The notes under the pieces: generated by a model
Told to the model about the DNA's origin: nothing
The model's input: only the letters and a program-made list of their open reading frames with translations
Databases searched by the model: none
Part shown: one piece after another, positions 2,953 through 36,332 of the stretch
Position numbering within the stretch: position 1 is the stretch's first letter
Layout: each line of letters starts with the position of its first letter
From: Candidatus Omnitrophota bacterium
Lineage (GTDB): Bacteria > Omnitrophota > Gorgyraeia > Zapsychrales > Aceulaceae
Direction: 5' to 3'
NCBI GenBank assembly: GCA_029564765.1
Contig: JAKQPK010000055.1
Coordinates: 5,255-69,254 of the forward strand
Length of the DNA: 64,000 nucleotides
Program-made: the position numbers and the translations under genes

Positions 2953-5589
2953 CTATGCCAGGTCGCCAAGGGTTTTTTCAAGTTCGCTGATCTTGGCTGA
3001 CAGCTCGGCGAACCGTGTTTTTTCTTTTTCGACAACGTCTTTAGGCGCTTTTTTAAGAAAAGAGGTATCGTTTAGGCGCTTAGAAAGATTCTCGCATGAG
3101 TGGCGGCAATTTTCAATTTCTGTTTCAATTCTTTTTTGTTCTTTCTCGACATCGATCAGGCCTTTAAGAGGAATGAAGATCTTTATTTTTCCGCATAAGG
3201 CGGTTGCCATATCCTTTGTCTTTACAGGTGCCTGTGATAGTCGCAGATCGTTAATGCCTGCCAACGTTTCGAGGACGGAGAAATTGCTTTCAAAGAAACG
3301 GTATTCATTAGCCGAACATTGCAGGATGCAGCAGAGGTCCGCGCCGTTGTTGATATGCCATTGCGCGCGAATATTACGGATGGCAGCGATCACGGCGAAT
3401 AGCCCTTCCATGCTTTGTTCCATGGCCGGGTTCTTGATGCGATGATCAATCGTTGGCCAGTTCTGCAAGGAAAGGATCTTTTTATCGCTGGTCATATTAT
3501 GATAGATCTCTTCGCTGATAAACGGCATGAAAGGATGCACTAAGCGTAAGGATTGGTCAAGAATGTAAAGAGAAACGATTTGAACTTCTTTTTCATTGAA
3601 ACGAGATTTGACCATCTCGAGATACCAATCGCAGACATTTTTCCATATGAAGTCATAGACCAGTGTTTCAGCTTCGGAGAAACGAAATCTTTCGATCGCA
3701 GTCTCAACATCCTGAGTAGTCGTCTGCAGCTTGGAGAGGATCCACTGACATGCCAGTGGAAGGTCCTTGGTTTTTAGTTTTTTAAAATTTTTATGCAGGT
3801 CTAAAGTCGAGATATCCGTGGTGTTCATCAGGATCAATCGGGAAGCGTTCCAGATCTTGTTGGCAAAGTTGCGGCCGATCTCGAATTTTTCTTTCGCGAT
3901 AAAAAGGTCTTGGCCTGAATTGACGATCAGGCTGAAGCGCAGCGCGTCCGCGCCGTATTCCTGAATGATCTCCAGAGGGTCGAGGGCGTTGCCGAGCGAT
4001 TTAGACATTTTTCGTCCTTGCGCATCGCGGACAGTCCCATGGATGTACACATCAGAGAACGGGATCTTTTTCTGGAATTCCATACCGGCCATGATCATGC
4101 GGGCAACCCAGAAAAAAATGATCTCAGGGGCTGTGAACAGTACTGACGTCGGATAAAAATATTTTAAGTCCGCGCTTCTTTTTGGCCAGCCCAGCGTCGC
4201 GAAAGGCCAAAGCCAGGAGGAGAACCAAGTGTCCAGCACATCAGGGTCCTGTCGGAGGTCTTTGCCCCGGCAGCAAGGACAGTGTCCAGGTTTTTGGTCC
4301 GTGACGATAGGACGGTCTTCCCCGCAGGCCTTGCAATACCATACTGGAATGCGATGCCCCCACCAGATCTGCCTTGAGATGCACCAGTCGCGGATGTTTT
4401 CCATCCAGTTAAGATAGGTCTTGGTCCAGCGTTCTGGATAAAATTTGATCTGCCCATTTTTGACAACGCGGATCGCTGGCTTGGCAAGCGGTTTCATTTT
4501 GACGAACCATTGCCGTGAAAGATATGGCTCGACGACCGTATGGCATCGGTAGCAATGGCCTACCGCGTGAAGGTGTTCATCAATTCTTTCAAGAAGGTTT
4601 TCTTTTTGAAGGGCTTCGATAACGGCAGTACGAGCTTTGAAGCGGTCGAGGCCGTTAAACTGCTTGGCATTCTCGTTCATGCGACCATCTTCATGAAGGA
4701 TGTTGATAGTTTCGAGATCATGACGTTGGCCCATCTGAAAATCATTAGGATCGTGGGCAGGAGTGACCTTTACAGCACCCGTCCCGAATTGCGGGTCAAC
4801 AAAATCATCCGCGATGATGCGTATCTCACGGTTGACCAGCGGCAGGATCAAGATTTTGCCGATAAGTTTTTTGTATCGCGCATCCTTAGGGTTTACGGCA
4901 ACAGCTGTGTCCCCGAGCATGGTTTCGGGGCGGGTTGTCGCGACGATCACATGCTCGCTTGGATCATCCTTGAGCGGATAGCGAATATGATACAAAGCGC
5001 CTTGTGTTTCTTTATGTTCAGCTTCTTCATCCGAAAGGGCTGTGTGGCAACGAGGACACCAGTTGATGATGTAGCGGCCGCGATAGATCAACCCTTTTTT
5101 GTAAAGCCGAATAAAAACTGTATTGACCGCTTTACTGTAGGGCTCATCCATGGTAAAGCGTGTGCGGTCCCAGTCACATGAGGATCCGAGTTTCTTGAGT
5201 TGATGAATGATCGTATCGCCATACTGCTTTTTCCAATCCCAAAGGCGCTGCAGGAATTCTTCGCGAGAGAGATCATGGCGCGTTTTTCCCTCTTTTGCCA
5301 GTTGTTTTTCGACAACATTCTGCGTGGCGATCCCGGCGTGATCTGTTCCGGGCATCCAGAGCGCTTCAAACCCTTTCATGCGTTTATAGCGGATCAAGAT
5401 GTCTTGCAGGGTGTTGTTAAGCGCGTGACCCATGTGCAGGATCCCGGTCACGTTCGGCGGAGGGATAACGATCGCAAAAGGGTTTTTCTTGCGGTTTGCC
5501 TGTGCGTGAAAGACATGATCTTTTTCCCATAGATCACGTCGAGAATCTTCAACAGTCTGCGGATTGTAGCGCGAGGAGATCGTATTCAT
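2953..5589 (-). CDS. valS: valyl-tRNA synthetase
   Basis: 878 aa; class-I HMGHA (PPPNVTGILHMGHALNNTLQD) and KMSKS motifs; C-terminal coiled coil typical of ValRS. Confidence 0.95.
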   Translation of the reverse strand: MNTISSRYNPQTVEDSRRDLWEKDHVFHAQANRKKNPFAIVIPPPNVTGILHMGHALNNTLQDILIRYKRMKGFEALWMPGTDHAGIATQNVVEKQLAKEGKTRHDLSREEFLQRLWDWKKQYGDTIIHQLKKLGSSCDWDRTRFTMDEPYSKAVNTVFIRLYKKGLIYRGRYIINWCPRCHTALSDEEAEHKETQGALYHIRYPLKDDPSEHVIVATTRPETMLGDTAVAVNPKDARYKKLIGKILILPLVNREIRIIADDFVDPQFGTGAVKVTPAHDPNDFQMGQRHDLETINILHEDGRMNENAKQFNGLDRFKARTAVIEALQKENLLERIDEHLHAVGHCYRCHTVVEPYLSRQWFVKMKPLAKPAIRVVKNGQIKFYPERWTKTYLNWMENIRDWCISRQIWWGHRIPVWYCKACGEDRPIVTDQKPGHCPCCRGKDLRQDPDVLDTWFSSWLWPFATLGWPKRSADLKYFYPTSVLFTAPEIIFFWVARMIMAGMEFQKKIPFSDVYIHGTVRDAQGRKMSKSLGNALDPLEIIQEYGADALRFSLIVNSGQDLFIAKEKFEIGRNFANKIWNASRLILMNTTDISTLDLHKNFKKLKTKDLPLACQWILSKLQTTTQDVETAIERFRFSEAETLVYDFIWKNVCDWYLEMVKSRFNEKEVQIVSLYILDQSLRLVHPFMPFISEEIYHNMTSDKKILSLQNWPTIDHRIKNPAMEQSMEGLFAVIAAIRNIRAQWHINNGADLCCILQCSANEYRFFESNFSVLETLAGINDLRLSQAPVKTKDMATALCGKIKIFIPLKGLIDVEKEQKRIETEIENCRHSCENLSKRLNDTSFLKKAPKDVVEKEKTRFAELSAKISELEKTLGDLA

Positions 5590-27292: not shown

Positions 27293-27832
27293 TTAATTTC
27301 CTTGGAGGCCACGTTTTTCTTTTTTTGCTTCCAAGTAGGCGGCGCGAAGTTCGTTTTTGTATTTCGTGTTAGGCGGTGTGATGGTAAGATTCGAAAAGCC
27401 TTGCCGAAGGATTTCCGCGTTCACAAAGGTCCCGTCTTTTAAGAAGATATAGCCAAGGATGTATCCTTGTCGATCGCGATAAAGGGCATCGAATTCCAAA
27501 AGGATGTCTTGGCCGGTTAGCATTTCGCGCAATGTATCGTAGACGATCTCTTCAAAAGAAATGATAGGGTCTTCTTTTTCGATAATAATATTGTATTCAT
27601 TGCGAGGGACTTCTTTTGTCCTTGGACGCTCAACAGGGACCAAACCGATCATGCGGATCTTCCGCCCGTCAACAAGGCGGACCGTCGCAGAATCTATAAG
27701 CGATTCGATGCGGGCCTGCTCTTTGCTGGCAGAGCCTGTTATAAGGGTTCGGTTCTGGGCGTAGACATAAAGATTCGCCGTTGCAAGGACGAGATGAAGC
27801 GTGATTAAGGTAAGGAGTGTTTTTTTATACAT
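27293..27832 (-). CDS. secreted staphylococcal-nuclease-like (thermonuclease/SNase) protein
   Basis: Signal peptide; VRLVDGRKIRMIGLVPVE and YRDRQGYILGYIFLKDG...NAEILRQGFS match SNase catalytic-core patterns. Confidence 0.55.
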   Translation of the reverse strand: MYKKTLLTLITLHLVLATANLYVYAQNRTLITGSASKEQARIESLIDSATVRLVDGRKIRMIGLVPVERPRTKEVPRNEYNIIIEKEDPIISFEEIVYDTLREMLTGQDILLEFDALYRDRQGYILGYIFLKDGTFVNAEILRQGFSNLTITPPNTKYKNELRAAYLEAKKEKRGLQGN

Positions 27833-28529: not shown

Positions 28530-31500
28530 CTAATTCTTGCAGAACACCCCGGAATCAGCCGAAACTCCCGGGTCGATATTGCTGATCAAACGTAAAACCA
28601 TGTTACAGTTGGCTCCCGCCGGAACACTCCAAACATACCCCAGCGGAGCATTCGGCGCCGGAGTTCCTGCGCTTGAGTCAGTAGTGATGGTATCTGGAAA
28701 AGTCGCGCCGCCATCTGATGAAAGTTTAATGGTCATATACGGCCCTACCCCGCTGACCGTCCATGTGATCTCATAAAAGCCAGAGATCGTGTCTCCAGCT
28801 GAAGGCGCTGTCACCGCTATGCTCGCACCACCGCCACTCGCGATCGTAAAGTTGCTGTCAGATGTGTCATACACGCTCGCGTCAGACGCATCGGAGATTC
28901 GCACGCGCACCATCGAACTCGGATCATTGGCAACAGTCCACGTATAACTGCCGCTTGAGGCGGAGGTTGACGCGATGATCGTATTCGGATAGGAAGCCCC
29001 ACTGTTAGTTGAGTATTCGATCTTCACATTCGAAACGGAACCACTCGTCGTCCAGGTGATGTTTTTTGAGGATGAGACATTCCAGGACTCGCCGCCATTA
29101 GGGCTCGTCAATGTCACGCTATTGGTGGCTGCCGTAACACCGCCCGCATCCAGGATAGTGCCAGCCCCGGGCTGTGTTGGATTGCGCTCCGCAGCCGCGG
29201 TCCTGATCTGATCGACCACGCTCGCGCTCAGCCCACTTGCCTGGGCGATCTGGGGCGACAGGGTCGCATAAATAAGATTGCCGCGCAGATTCTGGATCTT
29301 CATCTGGCCATCTTCCATCACAAAAATCATGGTCGTATTGCCGCTCGTCTTTTGCTGCAGACCCGTTTTTCGGGGAGTCTGGTCTTTATCCCATTTTGTT
29401 TCCGCGATGTAGGCATTGCCGCGTTTTTCAATACGATTGATATAGATCGTGAGGCGGATATCGGTGAACATGTCAAAATCGAACCGCACACCTTCTTCGA
29501 GGAAGCCCTTGTTCCCTAAATAAGACCTTGAAATAAGCTGAGCGAACGCTGACGGATCTTTTTTCTCATAAGTTTCAGCCAGTTGCTTGATGCTCTGTGC
29601 GACCATTTGTTGCACATTAAGATCGCGATAAATGATATTCAGATTAGGGAATAAAGGAATGGTCAGCTCATCGGCGAGCGTACTGCGGATCTTGAGCACA
29701 GGATTATACGTTTTATCCGGGATCATGGTGATCGTGCTCATGATATCCGCCCTCAAAGGCAATTCGGCCCACGTCCGGCCGCCATCCTCGGAAAAAAGAA
29801 TGCGGTCCAGCCTATCAATGCTATTCAATCGGGCCGTGATCTCGATCTCTCCCTGCTTGAGATCATCCGGCAGCAAAATAAGTTCCCCGAACATCATAGG
29901 GATCGCCCGGCTGTTGATCCGGGCATTAAAGACCTGATACGTCTGAGATGTGAAATTTCGCTCTTCGCGCAAGCGCTGTGCCTCGGCACTCTTGCGGGCG
30001 GCAGCCTCTTCTTGCTCGCGCTGGGAATCATCTTCTGCTTTTTTAAGAGCCCACTCTTTTTCCTGCTTTTCAATATCCTTTTTTGCCTTTTCAATAGCCA
30101 GATCAACTTCCTGTTCTAGCTCAGTCCAGTCCTTAATAACTTTCTCGGTCTTTTCGGTCTTAACCCACCCGACGTACACACTCAAGTTGCTGCGCAGTGT
30201 CTGGGTCTTGAATGTCTCAAGATTTTCCAGCTTTTCCTTGTACCAACCATGCTGTTCAATGGACTTGAATCGTTTCCTCGCGTCATCCAGATTCTTCTGT
30301 GCCCGAACGATAGAAGCATCAAATTCTTTCTGAACAATCGCATAGCGCTCTTCATAAAGAGCAATGCGTGCCGGAATAGTTTTCAGCCCGTTGATCATGG
30401 TCTTGGCCTTATCATTGAACCCGCCATGGTATTTAATAGACTTATTGATTCCTGAAAAAAGCTTTTCCATTTGGGCAACAAGAGCGGAAGACTCAGCCCA
30501 GGTTTCTTTCAATTGCGCCAGGTATTGCACACCTTTGCTCTTTTCCGGCTCAACGCTCATAAAGCCAGCCGCGCCGTCACCTCGGAACAATTGCAACACA
30601 TGCTCTGCTTCCTTTTGCATCGTTCTCTCGAGCACTGAACTGAGCACCGGAGAATCCGAAATTCCGGTCATAAGCCTGTTCAATGTCAGGGCCATGCGGT
30701 CAACGGAATCATAAAAGTCCATCTCAGTGATGAGCCTGTTAATAAGTTGCAGCGATTTGTCACTCTGCGCCAAGCCATCCGCTAACCCCATATCTTTCAA
30801 GAAAATTCCAGTATCTTCAGCGGAAGATATTATTGGAATATTCGCAATGATGCGCCGATAACCCCCGGCAAGAACGCCGTCGCCCTGTACCTTGCCCAAT
30901 ATTTTCAAAATAGCCGGAGAGGCAACATCTTTCAACATGAGCTCATATCTATACCCAGGCTTTTTCTCTATGACCTGCAGACTTTTGGGTACAGTGGCCT
31001 CAAATTTTCTGATCAGGGCCTGTACGGAAGTTTCATAATTTTCATACGCCTTCTTCGCCAATGATATTATTTCAGGATAAAGCTCTTTGTTCTTCTGCAG
31101 GTCATCCTTGATCTGCTTCAGAGACTCCATTGATCTGATGGCGTCACCGGGATTGTGGAACATGAAAAACTGCTCTTTGTGCTGCGTCCAAGCATCCACC
31201 TCTTGGGTACGATCAACAATACCGCCCGCGATGCTCTGATATGCCGTCATATCCTCCTTAAAAGCGGCCTCCATCCGAATGATATCCGTTGCTATTTCCT
31301 CCGTCAATTTATCCAGCGTGGCGCTCATGGTCATCACACGATCCTTGACCTCGAACAGAACGACCTGCTCTTCTTTGGCAAGGATATCAGCATCCTGCCT
31401 GTGCCCATTGCCAAAAACATAACTAATATTGGCGTAAGGAAAGGTCATAGCTGACCAAGCCTGATTAATACGGTGGTATTCAGCATAAAGTGCCTCACGC

Positions 31501-32915
31501 TCGGCCGGCGAAAGGTAAGCGCGATCCTTAGCCCTGACAGCATCATACTGAGGGCGATAAATGGCTGCTGCTTGAGCGGACACTTTTTCTCCCTCTTTGA
31601 TCAGATCCTGGATTTTATTCCAGGAATCCTCTAGAGCTTTCTTGCGCACTTCCTGATAACGCTCTATGCCCGCCTCAACCTCCTTGACATCATATCCGTC
31701 AGTGCCAGCCTCTTTAAATGGATCGAACGCATCACGCAAGGCATTGAGAACGCCCTGACGATCAATAGCACAGCTTTCATACTTGAACACCGGGCTTGCC
31801 CGCGCATATAACGCATCGTTACGATTAGCGATCTCTTGCGCCTCGTCGACGACCTCTTTGTAGTCCTCTTTCTTATATTCATACACTTTCGATTTAAAAC
31901 TATCGATAGCGGCAAGAACCGGCGAAGCATCCTTACCGGCAGTGTCGATCGCGCCCTGAACGCCACTGGCAGCTGCCTTGGCATCACTGTCGAGCGCTTC
32001 GAGCTTGGCGCGGACCTGTTGTTCGATCTCGATCCTTTTCTGGATCTCGGACTTCATCTTTTCAAGCGCGGCAATAATGGCCGCCTTCATATTATCGCCT
32101 TCATTGTCCTTACCCTTTAGATACCAGCCGCTGTACGCCAGCTGCTCATCCCATTCCTTTTGCACATAGCTTGGGATATCCGTCGCCATGATCCAGTCCT
32201 TAAACGCCTTGGGATTTGATCGTGGATTGCGTCCATCGAGGATCACATTCATTTTGGATTCCAGCGCCGTATCGAACGCATAGCCCACCACATAATTCCC
32301 GAGGGCCTCGACCGCAGCCTGCGCCAGGCGATAATAACCCCAACCGGGAATGAAATATTCCATGACCTTATCGCCGATCTGCTTGCCCAGTTCGCGGCAG
32401 CCTTCCTCAGCGCCCTTGGTGCTCCATGTCGAATACACATTCCATGCAATTTCGGCAGAAGCGATGCCGGCCTTCACGCCGTTCATTTTCGTATCAAGCT
32501 TGGATTTGATATCAATATCTGCCGCTGACCAGACTGCGCTCACGGCCTTGCCATCAACGATCGCCTGATGCATCATGGAAGGCACGGCGGCCTTGAAAAG
32601 ATCGGCCCGCGCTCTTGCCTGGATATAATTGAGCATCTTGTCCTTAACAGCGTCCTTGGCTCGGGACGCGGTCTCTTCCCAAACACGCTCTTTACCCTGC
32701 TTGAGGATATACTCCAGCTTCTGCTCAGTGGTCATGCTGTTCATGGCCGTGATATCTTTAACGAAGTTCGTATAGGAGGTGATCAGCGCTTTGGCAGCCT
32801 TGCCTGTGGCCGTCTCTTCAAACGGAGCATCTTTCGCCCAAAGCGGCTGGCCCGAACAAAGGGACAAGATCGTTACGCATGTGGTCAAGAACAGGATTTT
32901 TTTCATATGTCTCAC
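28530..32915 (-). CDS. giant (1,461 aa) secreted surface protein with coiled-coil-rich body and two C-terminal S/T-rich Ig-like repeats
   Basis: Signal peptide MRHMKKILFLTTCVTILSLCSGQPLWA. Long helical/coiled-coil segments. C-terminal tandem repeats of about 95 aa (SPNGGESWNV…ITWTTSG…VKIEYSTNSGASY…GSYTWTV…VRVRI, then APSAGDTISGFYEITWTVSG…IKLSSDGGATFPDTI…GYVWSVPAG…MVLRLI). No recognisable export-class motif. Confidence 0.7.
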   Translation of the reverse strand: MRHMKKILFLTTCVTILSLCSGQPLWAKDAPFEETATGKAAKALITSYTNFVKDITAMNSMTTEQKLEYILKQGKERVWEETASRAKDAVKDKMLNYIQARARADLFKAAVPSMMHQAIVDGKAVSAVWSAADIDIKSKLDTKMNGVKAGIASAEIAWNVYSTWSTKGAEEGCRELGKQIGDKVMEYFIPGWGYYRLAQAAVEALGNYVVGYAFDTALESKMNVILDGRNPRSNPKAFKDWIMATDIPSYVQKEWDEQLAYSGWYLKGKDNEGDNMKAAIIAALEKMKSEIQKRIEIEQQVRAKLEALDSDAKAAASGVQGAIDTAGKDASPVLAAIDSFKSKVYEYKKEDYKEVVDEAQEIANRNDALYARASPVFKYESCAIDRQGVLNALRDAFDPFKEAGTDGYDVKEVEAGIERYQEVRKKALEDSWNKIQDLIKEGEKVSAQAAAIYRPQYDAVRAKDRAYLSPAEREALYAEYHRINQAWSAMTFPYANISYVFGNGHRQDADILAKEEQVVLFEVKDRVMTMSATLDKLTEEIATDIIRMEAAFKEDMTAYQSIAGGIVDRTQEVDAWTQHKEQFFMFHNPGDAIRSMESLKQIKDDLQKNKELYPEIISLAKKAYENYETSVQALIRKFEATVPKSLQVIEKKPGYRYELMLKDVASPAILKILGKVQGDGVLAGGYRRIIANIPIISSAEDTGIFLKDMGLADGLAQSDKSLQLINRLITEMDFYDSVDRMALTLNRLMTGISDSPVLSSVLERTMQKEAEHVLQLFRGDGAAGFMSVEPEKSKGVQYLAQLKETWAESSALVAQMEKLFSGINKSIKYHGGFNDKAKTMINGLKTIPARIALYEERYAIVQKEFDASIVRAQKNLDDARKRFKSIEQHGWYKEKLENLETFKTQTLRSNLSVYVGWVKTEKTEKVIKDWTELEQEVDLAIEKAKKDIEKQEKEWALKKAEDDSQREQEEAAARKSAEAQRLREERNFTSQTYQVFNARINSRAIPMMFGELILLPDDLKQGEIEITARLNSIDRLDRILFSEDGGRTWAELPLRADIMSTITMIPDKTYNPVLKIRSTLADELTIPLFPNLNIIYRDLNVQQMVAQSIKQLAETYEKKDPSAFAQLISRSYLGNKGFLEEGVRFDFDMFTDIRLTIYINRIEKRGNAYIAETKWDKDQTPRKTGLQQKTSGNTTMIFVMEDGQMKIQNLRGNLIYATLSPQIAQASGLSASVVDQIRTAAAERNPTQPGAGTILDAGGVTAATNSVTLTSPNGGESWNVSSSKNITWTTSGSVSNVKIEYSTNSGASYPNTIIASTSASSGSYTWTVANDPSSMVRVRISDASDASVYDTSDSNFTIASGGGASIAVTAPSAGDTISGFYEITWTVSGVGPYMTIKLSSDGGATFPDTITTDSSAGTPAPNAPLGYVWSVPAGANCNMVLRLISNIDPGVSADSGVFCKN

Positions 32916-35810: not shown

Positions 35811-36332
35811 TTACCCTTTAGCTTTTTCAAGCGTTATCCAGTGATCGATCTTTGCCCGGTCAAATTTCCAGGCATCATCGGTTTTAATCCCGGGAAGCGT
35901 ACCTGCGTTGGCCATTTCCACGACCGATGAAATATCAAGCTCAAGATATCGAGCTGTTTCTTCCAGGGAAAGCTGTTCGTTGAGCATGCGGCATTGGCCT
36001 TCAAAAATAGCGCCTTCTACAATGTTCAGCTTGGGCGTTGAAATATTACCCATGAGCTCCGCGGAAGGCATTAATACTAACATCTTTGAAGCAAGGACAT
36101 CACCTTGGATCTTTCCTGCTACGATAACGTTCTCACCGGTGATCCTGGCCTCAACTCGAGCGGTTTCTCCAACAGTCAGCGTTCCTTTTGTTTCCAGTGA
36201 CCCAACAAAAAGTCCATTGATGCGCAGATTAACAGGGTCACTAAAAGAAAGGGTTCCTTTCATTTCAGCGTTTATCTCAATGAGTTTTTGTTCTGCTTCG
36301 TTCTTGCCTCGTCGGTCGCGTAAAGCCATCAT
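35811..36332 (-). CDS. bactofilin fused to a C-terminal excisionase-type HTH domain
   Basis: Bactofilin beta-helical repeat pattern (LTVGETARVEARITGENVIVAGKIQGDVLASKMLVLMPSAELMGNISTPKLNIVEGAIFEG), followed by LSLEETARYLELDISSVVEMANAGTLPGIKTDDAWKFDRAKIDHWI (HTH_17-like). Confidence 0.7.
   Translation of the reverse strand: MMALRDRRGKNEAEQKLIEINAEMKGTLSFSDPVNLRINGLFVGSLETKGTLTVGETARVEARITGENVIVAGKIQGDVLASKMLVLMPSAELMGNISTPKLNIVEGAIFEGQCRMLNEQLSLEETARYLELDISSVVEMANAGTLPGIKTDDAWKFDRAKIDHWITLEKAKG

Follow-up and report, generated by a model that had tools for sequence, protein, structure and literature searches.

What does a very large, predicted secreted protein contribute to the cell envelope of an Omnitrophota bacterium, and what is to be made of the two genes that precede it? 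The protein, of 1461 amino acids (aa) and called the giant below, is encoded in a stretch of 64,000 nucleotides (nt) of a Candidatus Omnitrophota bacterium (GenBank assembly GCA_029564765.1, contig JAKQPK010000055.1, positions 5,255 to 69,254), which we refer to as the window. Its surroundings are those of a housekeeping chromosomal region, with ValRS, LeuA, SecDF, AlaRS, GatA/B, FtsH, TilS, FolP and TsaD. A database search returned 14 near-full-length relatives at 28-95% identity, all the named ones from metagenome-assembled genomes (MAGs) of Omnitrophota or Omnitrophica, and the giant open reading frame (ORF) is therefore a real, conserved gene. Its true start is likely the ATG at 32906 (MKKILF...), three codons past the listed GTG. 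Comparison of loci revealed that the giant is the third member of a recurrent three-gene cassette.

In the window, the giant gene follows genes for a 581-aa putative outer-membrane β-barrel protein and for a 153-aa secreted protein related to the NTF2-like superfamily. The three are tightly packed on one strand, the small gene being separated by 17 nt from the barrel gene and by 15 nt from the giant gene, and the same order is found next to orthologues of the giant in six other contigs with different flanks. Hidden Markov models (HMMs) were built for the helical body, the β-sandwich domain that follows it (D1), the NTF2 domain, the small protein, the barrel and the C-terminal immunoglobulin (Ig)-like repeat, and all fetched loci were scanned with them, including 37 obtained by metagenome scanning with the D1-NTF2-linker module (described below) as the seed. 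The order barrel (540-600 aa), small secreted NTF2 protein, large secreted protein was present in at least 22 independent loci, between which the flanking genes vary. By a strict count, the triad order was kept in 19 of the 23 distinct barrel-containing loci found from the giant or the module; a twentieth locus, L042, has its small gene concealed in a mis-called ORF. In an independent test, three contigs of 224-425 kb were chosen for their barrel homologues, and all three contained the triad, with third genes of 1469, 436 and 1524 aa.

The three-gene cassette is found almost only in Omnitrophota MAGs. The family of the giant occurs at eight loci in GTDB representative genomes, seven of them from Omnitrophota and one on a short contig labelled Pseudomonadota, and when 1.84 billion cluster representatives were searched exhaustively with HMMER, only 71 proteins with the helical body were retrieved at E <= 1e-3. 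The domain combination, the helical body, the barrel family and the cassette are undescribed in the sources searched, and literature searches on NTF2 or the cassette in Omnitrophota, and on PF10082, found nothing. In one divergent cassette (L008), a 434-aa D1-NTF2 protein stands in place of the small gene. The contig concerned, Ga0180009_10000005, encodes a barrel homologue (hhalign E 1.8e-8), the 434-aa module protein and a 1123-aa protein with a window-type body and a possible NTF2-like end; it adjoins Mrp antiporter and NrfAH genes, and the same protein occurs in MAGs recorded under the label Proteobacteria. Several of the closest relatives, at L010, L003/L013 and L006, come from one MAG set (isolates nXXbin4 and nW3bin14; locus tags HQL21, HQL30 and HQL29). 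The MAGs with HQL locus tags presumably derive from magnetically enriched samples.

In the third genes, the invariant part is the D1-NTF2-linker module, and the N-terminal bodies are interchangeable, the helical body of the window being one of several. Many large proteins of the cassette carry 750-1200 N-terminal residues without any match to the window-type body. The window-type N-domain had no detectable relationship to the commoner 'class B' N-domain (hhalign probability 7%), and a third class of N-terminal body is of another helical type. At L044 (7879-10104), the cargo body consists of Cys-rich Adt-1-like/ADAMTS cysteine-rich repeats (E 6e-10) and has no helical rod; apart from these repeats, Pfam gave no significant family for seven cargos with other bodies. 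Stand-alone secreted proteins of 431-436 aa (L006 6611-7906, L008 6685-7989 and L056 12276-13586) represent the module in its minimal form, as they have no parts other than an Asp-box sandwich, an NTF2 domain, a linker and a common C-terminal domain. This last domain, of ~120 aa, is widely conserved: 47 of 54 module proteins end in it, with the terminal motif F-x-Y-A-V-Q-T-D-G-S-R-N-L or the variant ...Y-Q-x-N-G-T-R-x-F. The clade of the window has one or two Ig-like repeats in its place, as a clade-specific replacement. Up to four or five module proteins are clustered at one locus. Module identity between such same-locus paralogues is 36-66%, mostly 40% or more, and does not track body class; a comparison for concerted evolution within genomes gave no clear within-locus homogenisation.

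The second gene of the cassette bears directly on the third. The preliminary description of this DNA had noted that a segment of the giant echoes the small protein upstream and had proposed an NTF2-like fold. In pairwise form, the first observation did not hold: alignment of the small protein with the NTF2 segment (residues ~1150-1210) gave a Smith-Waterman z of 3.0, reached by 7 of 500 shuffles, and a BLASTP E of ~1, which is not significant. Profile comparison upheld it. The family of the small protein matched the NTF2 segment of the giants with an hhalign probability of 97.6% (E 2.7e-12, 107 columns), and the HMM of the small protein matched the NTF2 domain of the giants directly, at 1e-5 to 1e-13. 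These profiles identify the small protein and the NTF2 domain of the giant as homologous, as paralogues whose kinship is visible by profiles and not pairwise. An N-terminal similarity between the two proteins, the best BLASTP match (E 0.013), was attributed to chance or to the signal peptide (profile probability 2.8%). The 153-aa protein had one marginal PHROGs match (E 0.0022), in which no single stretch was significant.

The fold itself is supported by modelling. Residues 994-1214 of the AlphaFold model have predicted local distance difference test (pLDDT) values of 70-90, and Foldseek superposed residues 1101-1212 on 3soy, 3rob and 3hx8 with template modelling (TM) scores of 0.70-0.77 and root-mean-square deviations of 2.0-2.4 Å. 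This supports membership of the NTF2-like fold at the superfamily level; no Pfam family of the NTF2 clan (SnoaL, DUF4440, CaMKII_AD and others) matched the giant or the 153-aa protein at E <= 1. The domain is 51-98% identical across orthologues, and its invariant residues are largely charged or polar (EEGVRFDFDMF, W-x-K-x-Q-x-P).

On either side of the NTF2 domain lie two parts that were absent from the preliminary description, the Asp-box sandwich (residues 994-1098) and the conserved linker. D1 was modelled with ~10 strands at pLDDT 73-90. Its Asp-box agrees with the form S-x-D-x-G-x-T-W and matches the Pfam BNR motif at 1041-1050, and the D1 profile matches only the Asp-boxes of sialidases and sortilin. 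The Asp-boxes of the giant are single motifs within sandwiches and do not form a β-propeller. The linker, modelled at low confidence, has the consensus IYATLSPxIAxxSGLS..V...IRTA...RNP.QPGAG; it is 45-100% identical across orthologues and is also conserved in paralogues with unrelated bodies. Across the whole giant, the rod is the least conserved part, whereas the N-domain, the NTF2 domain and the linker are the most conserved.

The N-domain (residues 28-290) keeps 41-98% identity across orthologues, compared with 14-96% for the body (291-990), the fastest-evolving part of the conserved core. Most invariant alignment columns fall in the N-domain, including Y-F-I-P-G-W-G-Y-Y...A...V..Y.F. Residues 182-217, with the motif EYFIPGWGYYRLAQAAVEALGNYVVGYAFDTAL, are almost invariant in the family, yet they form the least confidently modelled part of this domain, with pLDDT below 50 (block means 32-46). 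An invariant segment that resists modelling in this way is what would be expected of a partner-dependent region.

The body was modelled as a succession of long helices (272-373, 410-464, 497-563, 591-641, 714-753, 794-826, 847-887 and 921-956), with pLDDT mostly 80-93. The all-helical part of the giant totals ~960 residues, single helices reach ~100 residues, and the α-amphipathic moment of the body stands at z = 4.3. The coiled-coil body put forward in the preliminary description survives as a helical one: the peptide EQQVRAKLEALDSDAKAAASG, at 298-318, does lie inside helix 272-373 and inside a heptad-positive stretch (299-326), although 'coiled coil' is over-specific. In a crude, home-made heptad test, only 299-326 and 860-891 exceeded the 99th percentile of shuffles, a share of the body of ~6% against 1.4% expected. 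A long-helix rod is thus supported by the model, and a coiled coil only in part. The second heptad peptide that had been quoted, KEKTRFAELSAKISELEKTLG, lies outside the giant, in an 878-aa valyl-tRNA synthetase ORF (2953..5589, (-)), where it belongs to the C-terminal coiled-coil tRNA-binding arm (Val_tRNA-synt_C). Searches for relatives of the body gave none in Pfam, NCBIfam, PADLOC or PHROGs, and a profile search against PDB sequences gave no match; the giant as a whole had no match to the phage and defence-system models of PHROGs and PADLOC. Foldseek of the 1000-residue helical model against the PDB and BFVD returned generic long-helix proteins only (best E 0.014-0.018, TM below 0.2), the weak neighbours being spectrin-type bundles, none of them significant. 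Pfam annotation of 40 distant members of the body family was uninformative, with He_PIG in five and FecR in one.

At the other end of the giant, the two Ser/Thr-rich repeats of ~95 aa seen in the preliminary description are indeed homologous. R1 (1265-1358) and R2 (here 1361-1461) align with a Smith-Waterman score of 107, against 33 +/- 6.5 for shuffles (z = 11.4), and none of 500 shuffles reaches 107; Ser and Thr make up 30% of residues 1265-1461. The assignment to Kre9/KNH or other Ig-like modules fared less well. Big_7 (PF17957) matched the repeats at E 8e-4 and 20.4 bits, below the Pfam cut-off of 24.1, and Kre9_KNH (PF10342) at E 1.9e-3 and 19.4 bits, below the cut-off of 24.6; 'faint' matches were recorded in two orthologues, and the repeat profile gave weak FN3 and Asp-box matches only. 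The AlphaFold model places β strands over 1266-1460, at pLDDT ~30-70; the repeats are probably Ig-like sandwiches. Each contains a relaxed copy of the Asp-box, YSTNSGASY in R1 and LSSDGGATF in R2; beyond this motif, homology between D1 and the repeats was not detectable (hhalign probability 17%). The Cys pair of R2 is kept in five of six aligned R2 copies, which would fit an oxidising compartment. Overall, the architecture given in the preliminary description is largely right, and the 'stalk with distal binding module' that it drew from these features remains plausible as a hypothesis.

The first gene of the cassette encodes a protein with 13% aromatic residues and a single Cys; in a 'Candidatus Omnitrophota bacterium' MAG, a protein matches it at 100% identity. 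Its homologues fall into 41 clusters, and all those with a source name are from Omnitrophota or Omnitrophica. Apart from the Pfam family discussed below, no match was obtained in Pfam (E <= 1), NCBIfam or the PDB, nor in PHROGs and PADLOC. We regard its designation as a putative outer-membrane barrel as a well-motivated inference. The features of the cassette and of its neighbours are collected in the table.

Features of the cassette and neighbouring genes (positions in the window; residue numbers refer to the giant)
Feature	Position	Strand	Remarks
Putative outer-membrane β-barrel protein, 581 aa	33410..35155	(-)	first cassette gene; signal peptide; ends ...KFVSNF
Secreted small NTF2-like protein, 153 aa	32931..33392	(-)	signal peptide MKKIFVLILSLFFLAGYGHA; conserved C-terminal G-N-x-P-F
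Giant gene	28530..32915	(-)	ORF of 1461 aa; listed start GTG
Signal peptide of giant, residues 1-27	32835..32915	(-)	MKKILFLTTCVTILSLCSGQPLWA followed by KD; sole hydrophobic segment of giant
Conserved N-terminal helical domain, residues 28-290	32046..32834	(-)	invariant motif Y-F-I-P-G-W-G-Y-Y...
Almost invariant segment, residues 182-217	32265-32372	(-)	
Long all-α body, residues 291-990	29946..32045	(-)	AlphaFold helices
D1 β-sandwich, residues 994-1098	29622..29936	(-)	one Asp-box, FSEDGGRTW, 1041-1049
NTF2-like cone domain, residues 1101-1215	29271..29615	(-)	three helices and four long strands, pLDDT 70-87
Conserved linker, residues 1216-1264	29124..29270	(-)	IYATLSPQIAQASGLS..VVDQIRTA..ERNPTQPGAG...
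Repeat R1, residues 1265-1358	28842..29123	(-)	Ser/Thr-rich, Ig-like; Asp-box-like YSTNSGASY
Repeat R2, residues 1365-1461	28533..28823	(-)	LSSDGGATF; Cys pair C1437, C1459
Secreted K/E-rich coiled-coil protein, 188 aa	27850-28416	(-)	directly downstream of giant
Secreted staphylococcal-nuclease-like protein	27293-27832	(-)	PF00565 E 8e-11; NucI E 4e-13
Bactofilin-HTH_17 fusion	35811-36332	(-)	bactofilin domain PF04519, E 2.8e-24
HTH_17 protein, 100 aa	35488-35790	(-)	hydrophobic C-terminal tail

Two further pairs of genes lie near the cassette in the window. Directly downstream of the giant, and on its strand, lie the genes for the 188-aa protein and the staphylococcal-nuclease-like protein; neither the nuclease nor a comparable pair appears directly downstream of orthologous giants in the called-gene tables, no direct search for them having been made. 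On the other side, the bactofilin domain is fused to a C-terminal excisionase-type HTH_17 DNA-binding domain, an unusual architecture for one protein, and this gene is followed by that of the small HTH_17 protein. A scan for promoters and terminators gave nothing informative.

What might the cassette do? We lean, tentatively, towards a system for anchoring or exporting large proteins of the cell envelope in association with the barrel, in which the 1461-aa protein would be a rod-shaped cargo. In such a system, the giant would be exported through Sec and would be a rod-shaped cell-envelope protein, one cargo of the cassette, while the 581-aa putative barrel would provide the outer-membrane docking or export site. 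Whatever body it is attached to, the D1-NTF2-linker module would direct that body to the barrel, as an address or an anchor. The small NTF2 paralogue may pair with the NTF2 domain of the cargo and act as an escort in the periplasm or, at the barrel, as a plug or an adaptor; this pairing is proposed because NTF2 domains commonly dimerise through their sheets, and NXF1-NXT1, a large protein with a small stand-alone partner, offers a precedent. The helical body would act as a spacer, spanning tens of nanometres if extended bundles form, and the rod could hold the conserved N-domain or the C-terminal Ig-like repeats off the membrane for contact with a surface, prey or a host. Conserved ends separated by a variable rod fit, from the alignments, a rod with two functional ends, either of which may face outward. 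A contact role would also fit the predicted epibiotic or predatory lifestyle of the phylum, whose members have been proposed to be predators or parasites that use large surface proteins (PMC10066038).

Anchoring or export is favoured by the signal peptides present on all three cassette proteins, together with the lack of any other hydrophobic segment in the giant, and by the Adt-1/ADAMTS-like repeats of L044, which are of a domain type typical of extracellular proteins. The close packing of the three genes, the triad order kept between differing flanks, the module shared by unrelated bodies and also occurring alone, the homology of the small protein with the NTF2 domain of the cargo, the conservation pattern and the Cys pair of R2 likewise speak for it. 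Several observations weigh on the other side. The evidence for a barrel is weak: the Pfam family BBP2_2 ('putative beta-barrel porin 2') is passed by one of 29 barrel members (25.0 bits, cut-off 23.7), and what is added to this is a C-terminal Phe, the amino-acid composition and a β-amphipathic moment of the 581-aa protein of only z = 2.6 over shuffles. No POTRA, usher, autotransporter, LptD or Slam signature was detectable in the 581-aa protein with Pfam and NCBIfam; lacking POTRA, usher, autotransporter and Slam signatures, it is therefore without mechanistic precedent by homology. Two cassettes (L026 and L038) have no small gene, and many module proteins lie in clusters without a barrel in the sequence at hand. 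Finally, we infer the outer-membrane or surface placement of the cassette parts from genes and predictions, and a purely periplasmic location would account for the same genomic facts.

Such a location is the basis of the first alternative, a periplasmic scaffold or tether with the module on the periplasmic face of the barrel and the other end at the peptidoglycan or the inner membrane. It would accommodate a Sec-dependent protein without any recognisable outer-membrane translocation domain, a body that is a long helical rod, and the conserved partnership with the barrel; conserved termini flanking a variable rod would agree with a spacer whose ends are defined. However, SLH, OmpA_C, LysM and other peptidoglycan-binding domains were not found, and the clustering of up to four or five paralogues with unrelated bodies (Cys-rich Adt-1-like repeats, He_PIG/Kre9-like Ig) at one locus is more typical of surface display. 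A helical body of ~700 residues, if extended, would also exceed the usual width of the periplasm. A tether seems unlikely.

More improbable still is a released effector, that is, a toxin, pore-former or lipid-binding (apolipoprotein-like) factor delivered into the medium or into prey, whose NTF2 cone binds a hydrophobic ligand and whose small NTF2 partner acts as an immunity protein or chaperone. NTF2-like cones often bind small hydrophobic ligands, and ketosteroid-isomerase-like proteins are among the Foldseek matches of this domain, but its invariant residues are largely charged or polar and do not line a greasy pocket. The long amphipathic helices of the body and the invariant, unmodelled segment 182-217, which is aromatic- and Gly-rich, could belong to a membrane-active factor of this type; yet no similarity to toxins, pore-formers or apolipoproteins was found in Pfam, PDB sequences or Foldseek against the PDB, and the giant has no hydrophobic hairpin. 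The secreted nuclease encoded just downstream in the window would suit an effector locus, although in the called-gene tables this neighbour is not conserved beside orthologues.

That the three genes are merely co-inherited neighbours, the giant being an ordinary lineage-specific secreted protein, is hardly credible even though only genomic evidence speaks for a link and the family hardly extends beyond one phylum, because order and tight spacing are kept while the flanks change wholly, at module identities down to 27-50%, the trio persists when the cargo body is swapped for unrelated ones and again in the divergent cassette of the MAG labelled Proteobacteria, and the small protein and a domain of the cargo are paralogous.

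The anchoring or export system can also be stated in a bolder form. The barrel, the small NTF2 protein and the D1-NTF2-linker module, with or without the common C-terminal domain, would then constitute an unrecognised Omnitrophota pathway for outer-membrane export or surface anchoring, in which an NTF2-based C-terminal address brings interchangeable large passengers, helical rods and Cys-rich repeats among them, to a dedicated barrel and so arms nano-sized, probably predatory or epibiotic cells with contact structures. We consider this form doubtful. The Omnitrophota are uncultured, mostly ultra-small and thought to be predators or parasites, and their means of contacting other cells are described as unknown (PMC10066038). 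The analysis defines a compact, recurrent cassette whose invariant components are the putative barrel, the small NTF2 protein and the sandwich-NTF2-linker module, the last carried on several unrelated large secreted bodies. Were it an export or anchoring device, it would couple large proteins to an outer-membrane barrel in a new manner, and its components would be concrete candidates for the apparatus with which the phylum contacts other cells. Even as a mere structural envelope family, it would unite ~70 protein clusters and dozens of 'hypothetical' giants in one modular family.

At the level of folds, there is nothing unusual in the NTF2 domain or the Asp-box motifs as building blocks, and comparison with known systems sets the cassette among partial likenesses. 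The C-terminal repeats resemble the Kre9/KNH-like (PF10342) and Big_7 (PF17957) domains in length, Ser/Thr richness and the pattern ITW...G..V.I.YS.DGG....I......G.Y.W.VP....VRI, but their scores stay under the gathering thresholds and the model confidence is low. Residues 1101-1212 share the fold of the NTF2-like superfamily, which includes NXF1-NXT1, the CaMKII hub and VirB8/TcpC-type scaffolds, and the CaMKII hub and TcpC are among the Foldseek matches; the giant departs from the superfamily in lacking a sequence match to any of its Pfam clan families. The arrangement of an NTF2 domain in a large protein with a small, putative stand-alone NTF2 partner mirrors NXF1-NXT1. For the periplasmic tether, the Thermotoga Ompα rod with Ompβ and the SlpA/OmpM-type tethers provide a conceptual likeness.

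Among secretion systems, the loci of chaperone-usher pili likewise hold a single barrel gene and several paralogous genes for subunits, whose fold recurs in a small periplasmic partner. The cassette has neither Usher nor PapD-like domains, its subunits would be of 430-1600 aa with NTF2 rather than incomplete Ig folds, and polymerisation would be pure speculation. The cargos of the type IX secretion system (T9SS), with their C-terminal domains (CTDs), and those of the type XI system (T11SS, Slam) are, like the module proteins, diverse passengers with a conserved C-terminal region, and the ~120-aa domain at the end of most module proteins adds to the resemblance. On the other hand, no homology to T9SS CTDs, PorV, Sov or the DUF560 domain of Slam was found, these systems belong to another phylum, and the giant of the window has Ig-like repeats instead.

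The Type V systems, namely classical and inverse autotransporters and the TpsA/TpsB pairs, differ from the cassette in the machinery. Searches of the giant and the barrel with Pfam and NCBIfam gave no two-partner secretion (TPS) domain, no POTRA with a ShlB barrel, no autotransporter β-domain, no Usher and no DUF560. In the cassette, the putative barrel is encoded separately, and no POTRA, ShlB or autotransporter domain is detectable in it; the proposed address lies towards the C-terminus, where an Asp-box sandwich is combined with an NTF2 domain, in contrast to the N-terminal β-helix of TPS; and a small NTF2 protein is added. In their logic they are nevertheless alike: large Sec-dependent proteins are paired with a dedicated outer-membrane barrel, a putative one in the cassette, encoded next to them, and a conserved region addresses a variable passenger; inverse autotransporters, moreover, display C-terminal Ig-like or lectin-like domains. 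Like LptD-LptE, the cassette encodes a large barrel, here a putative one, together with a small soluble protein that could be placed inside the barrel or next to it. Its sequences bear no similarity to that pair, and its small protein differs in having an NTF2 fold and a paralogous domain in the cargo.

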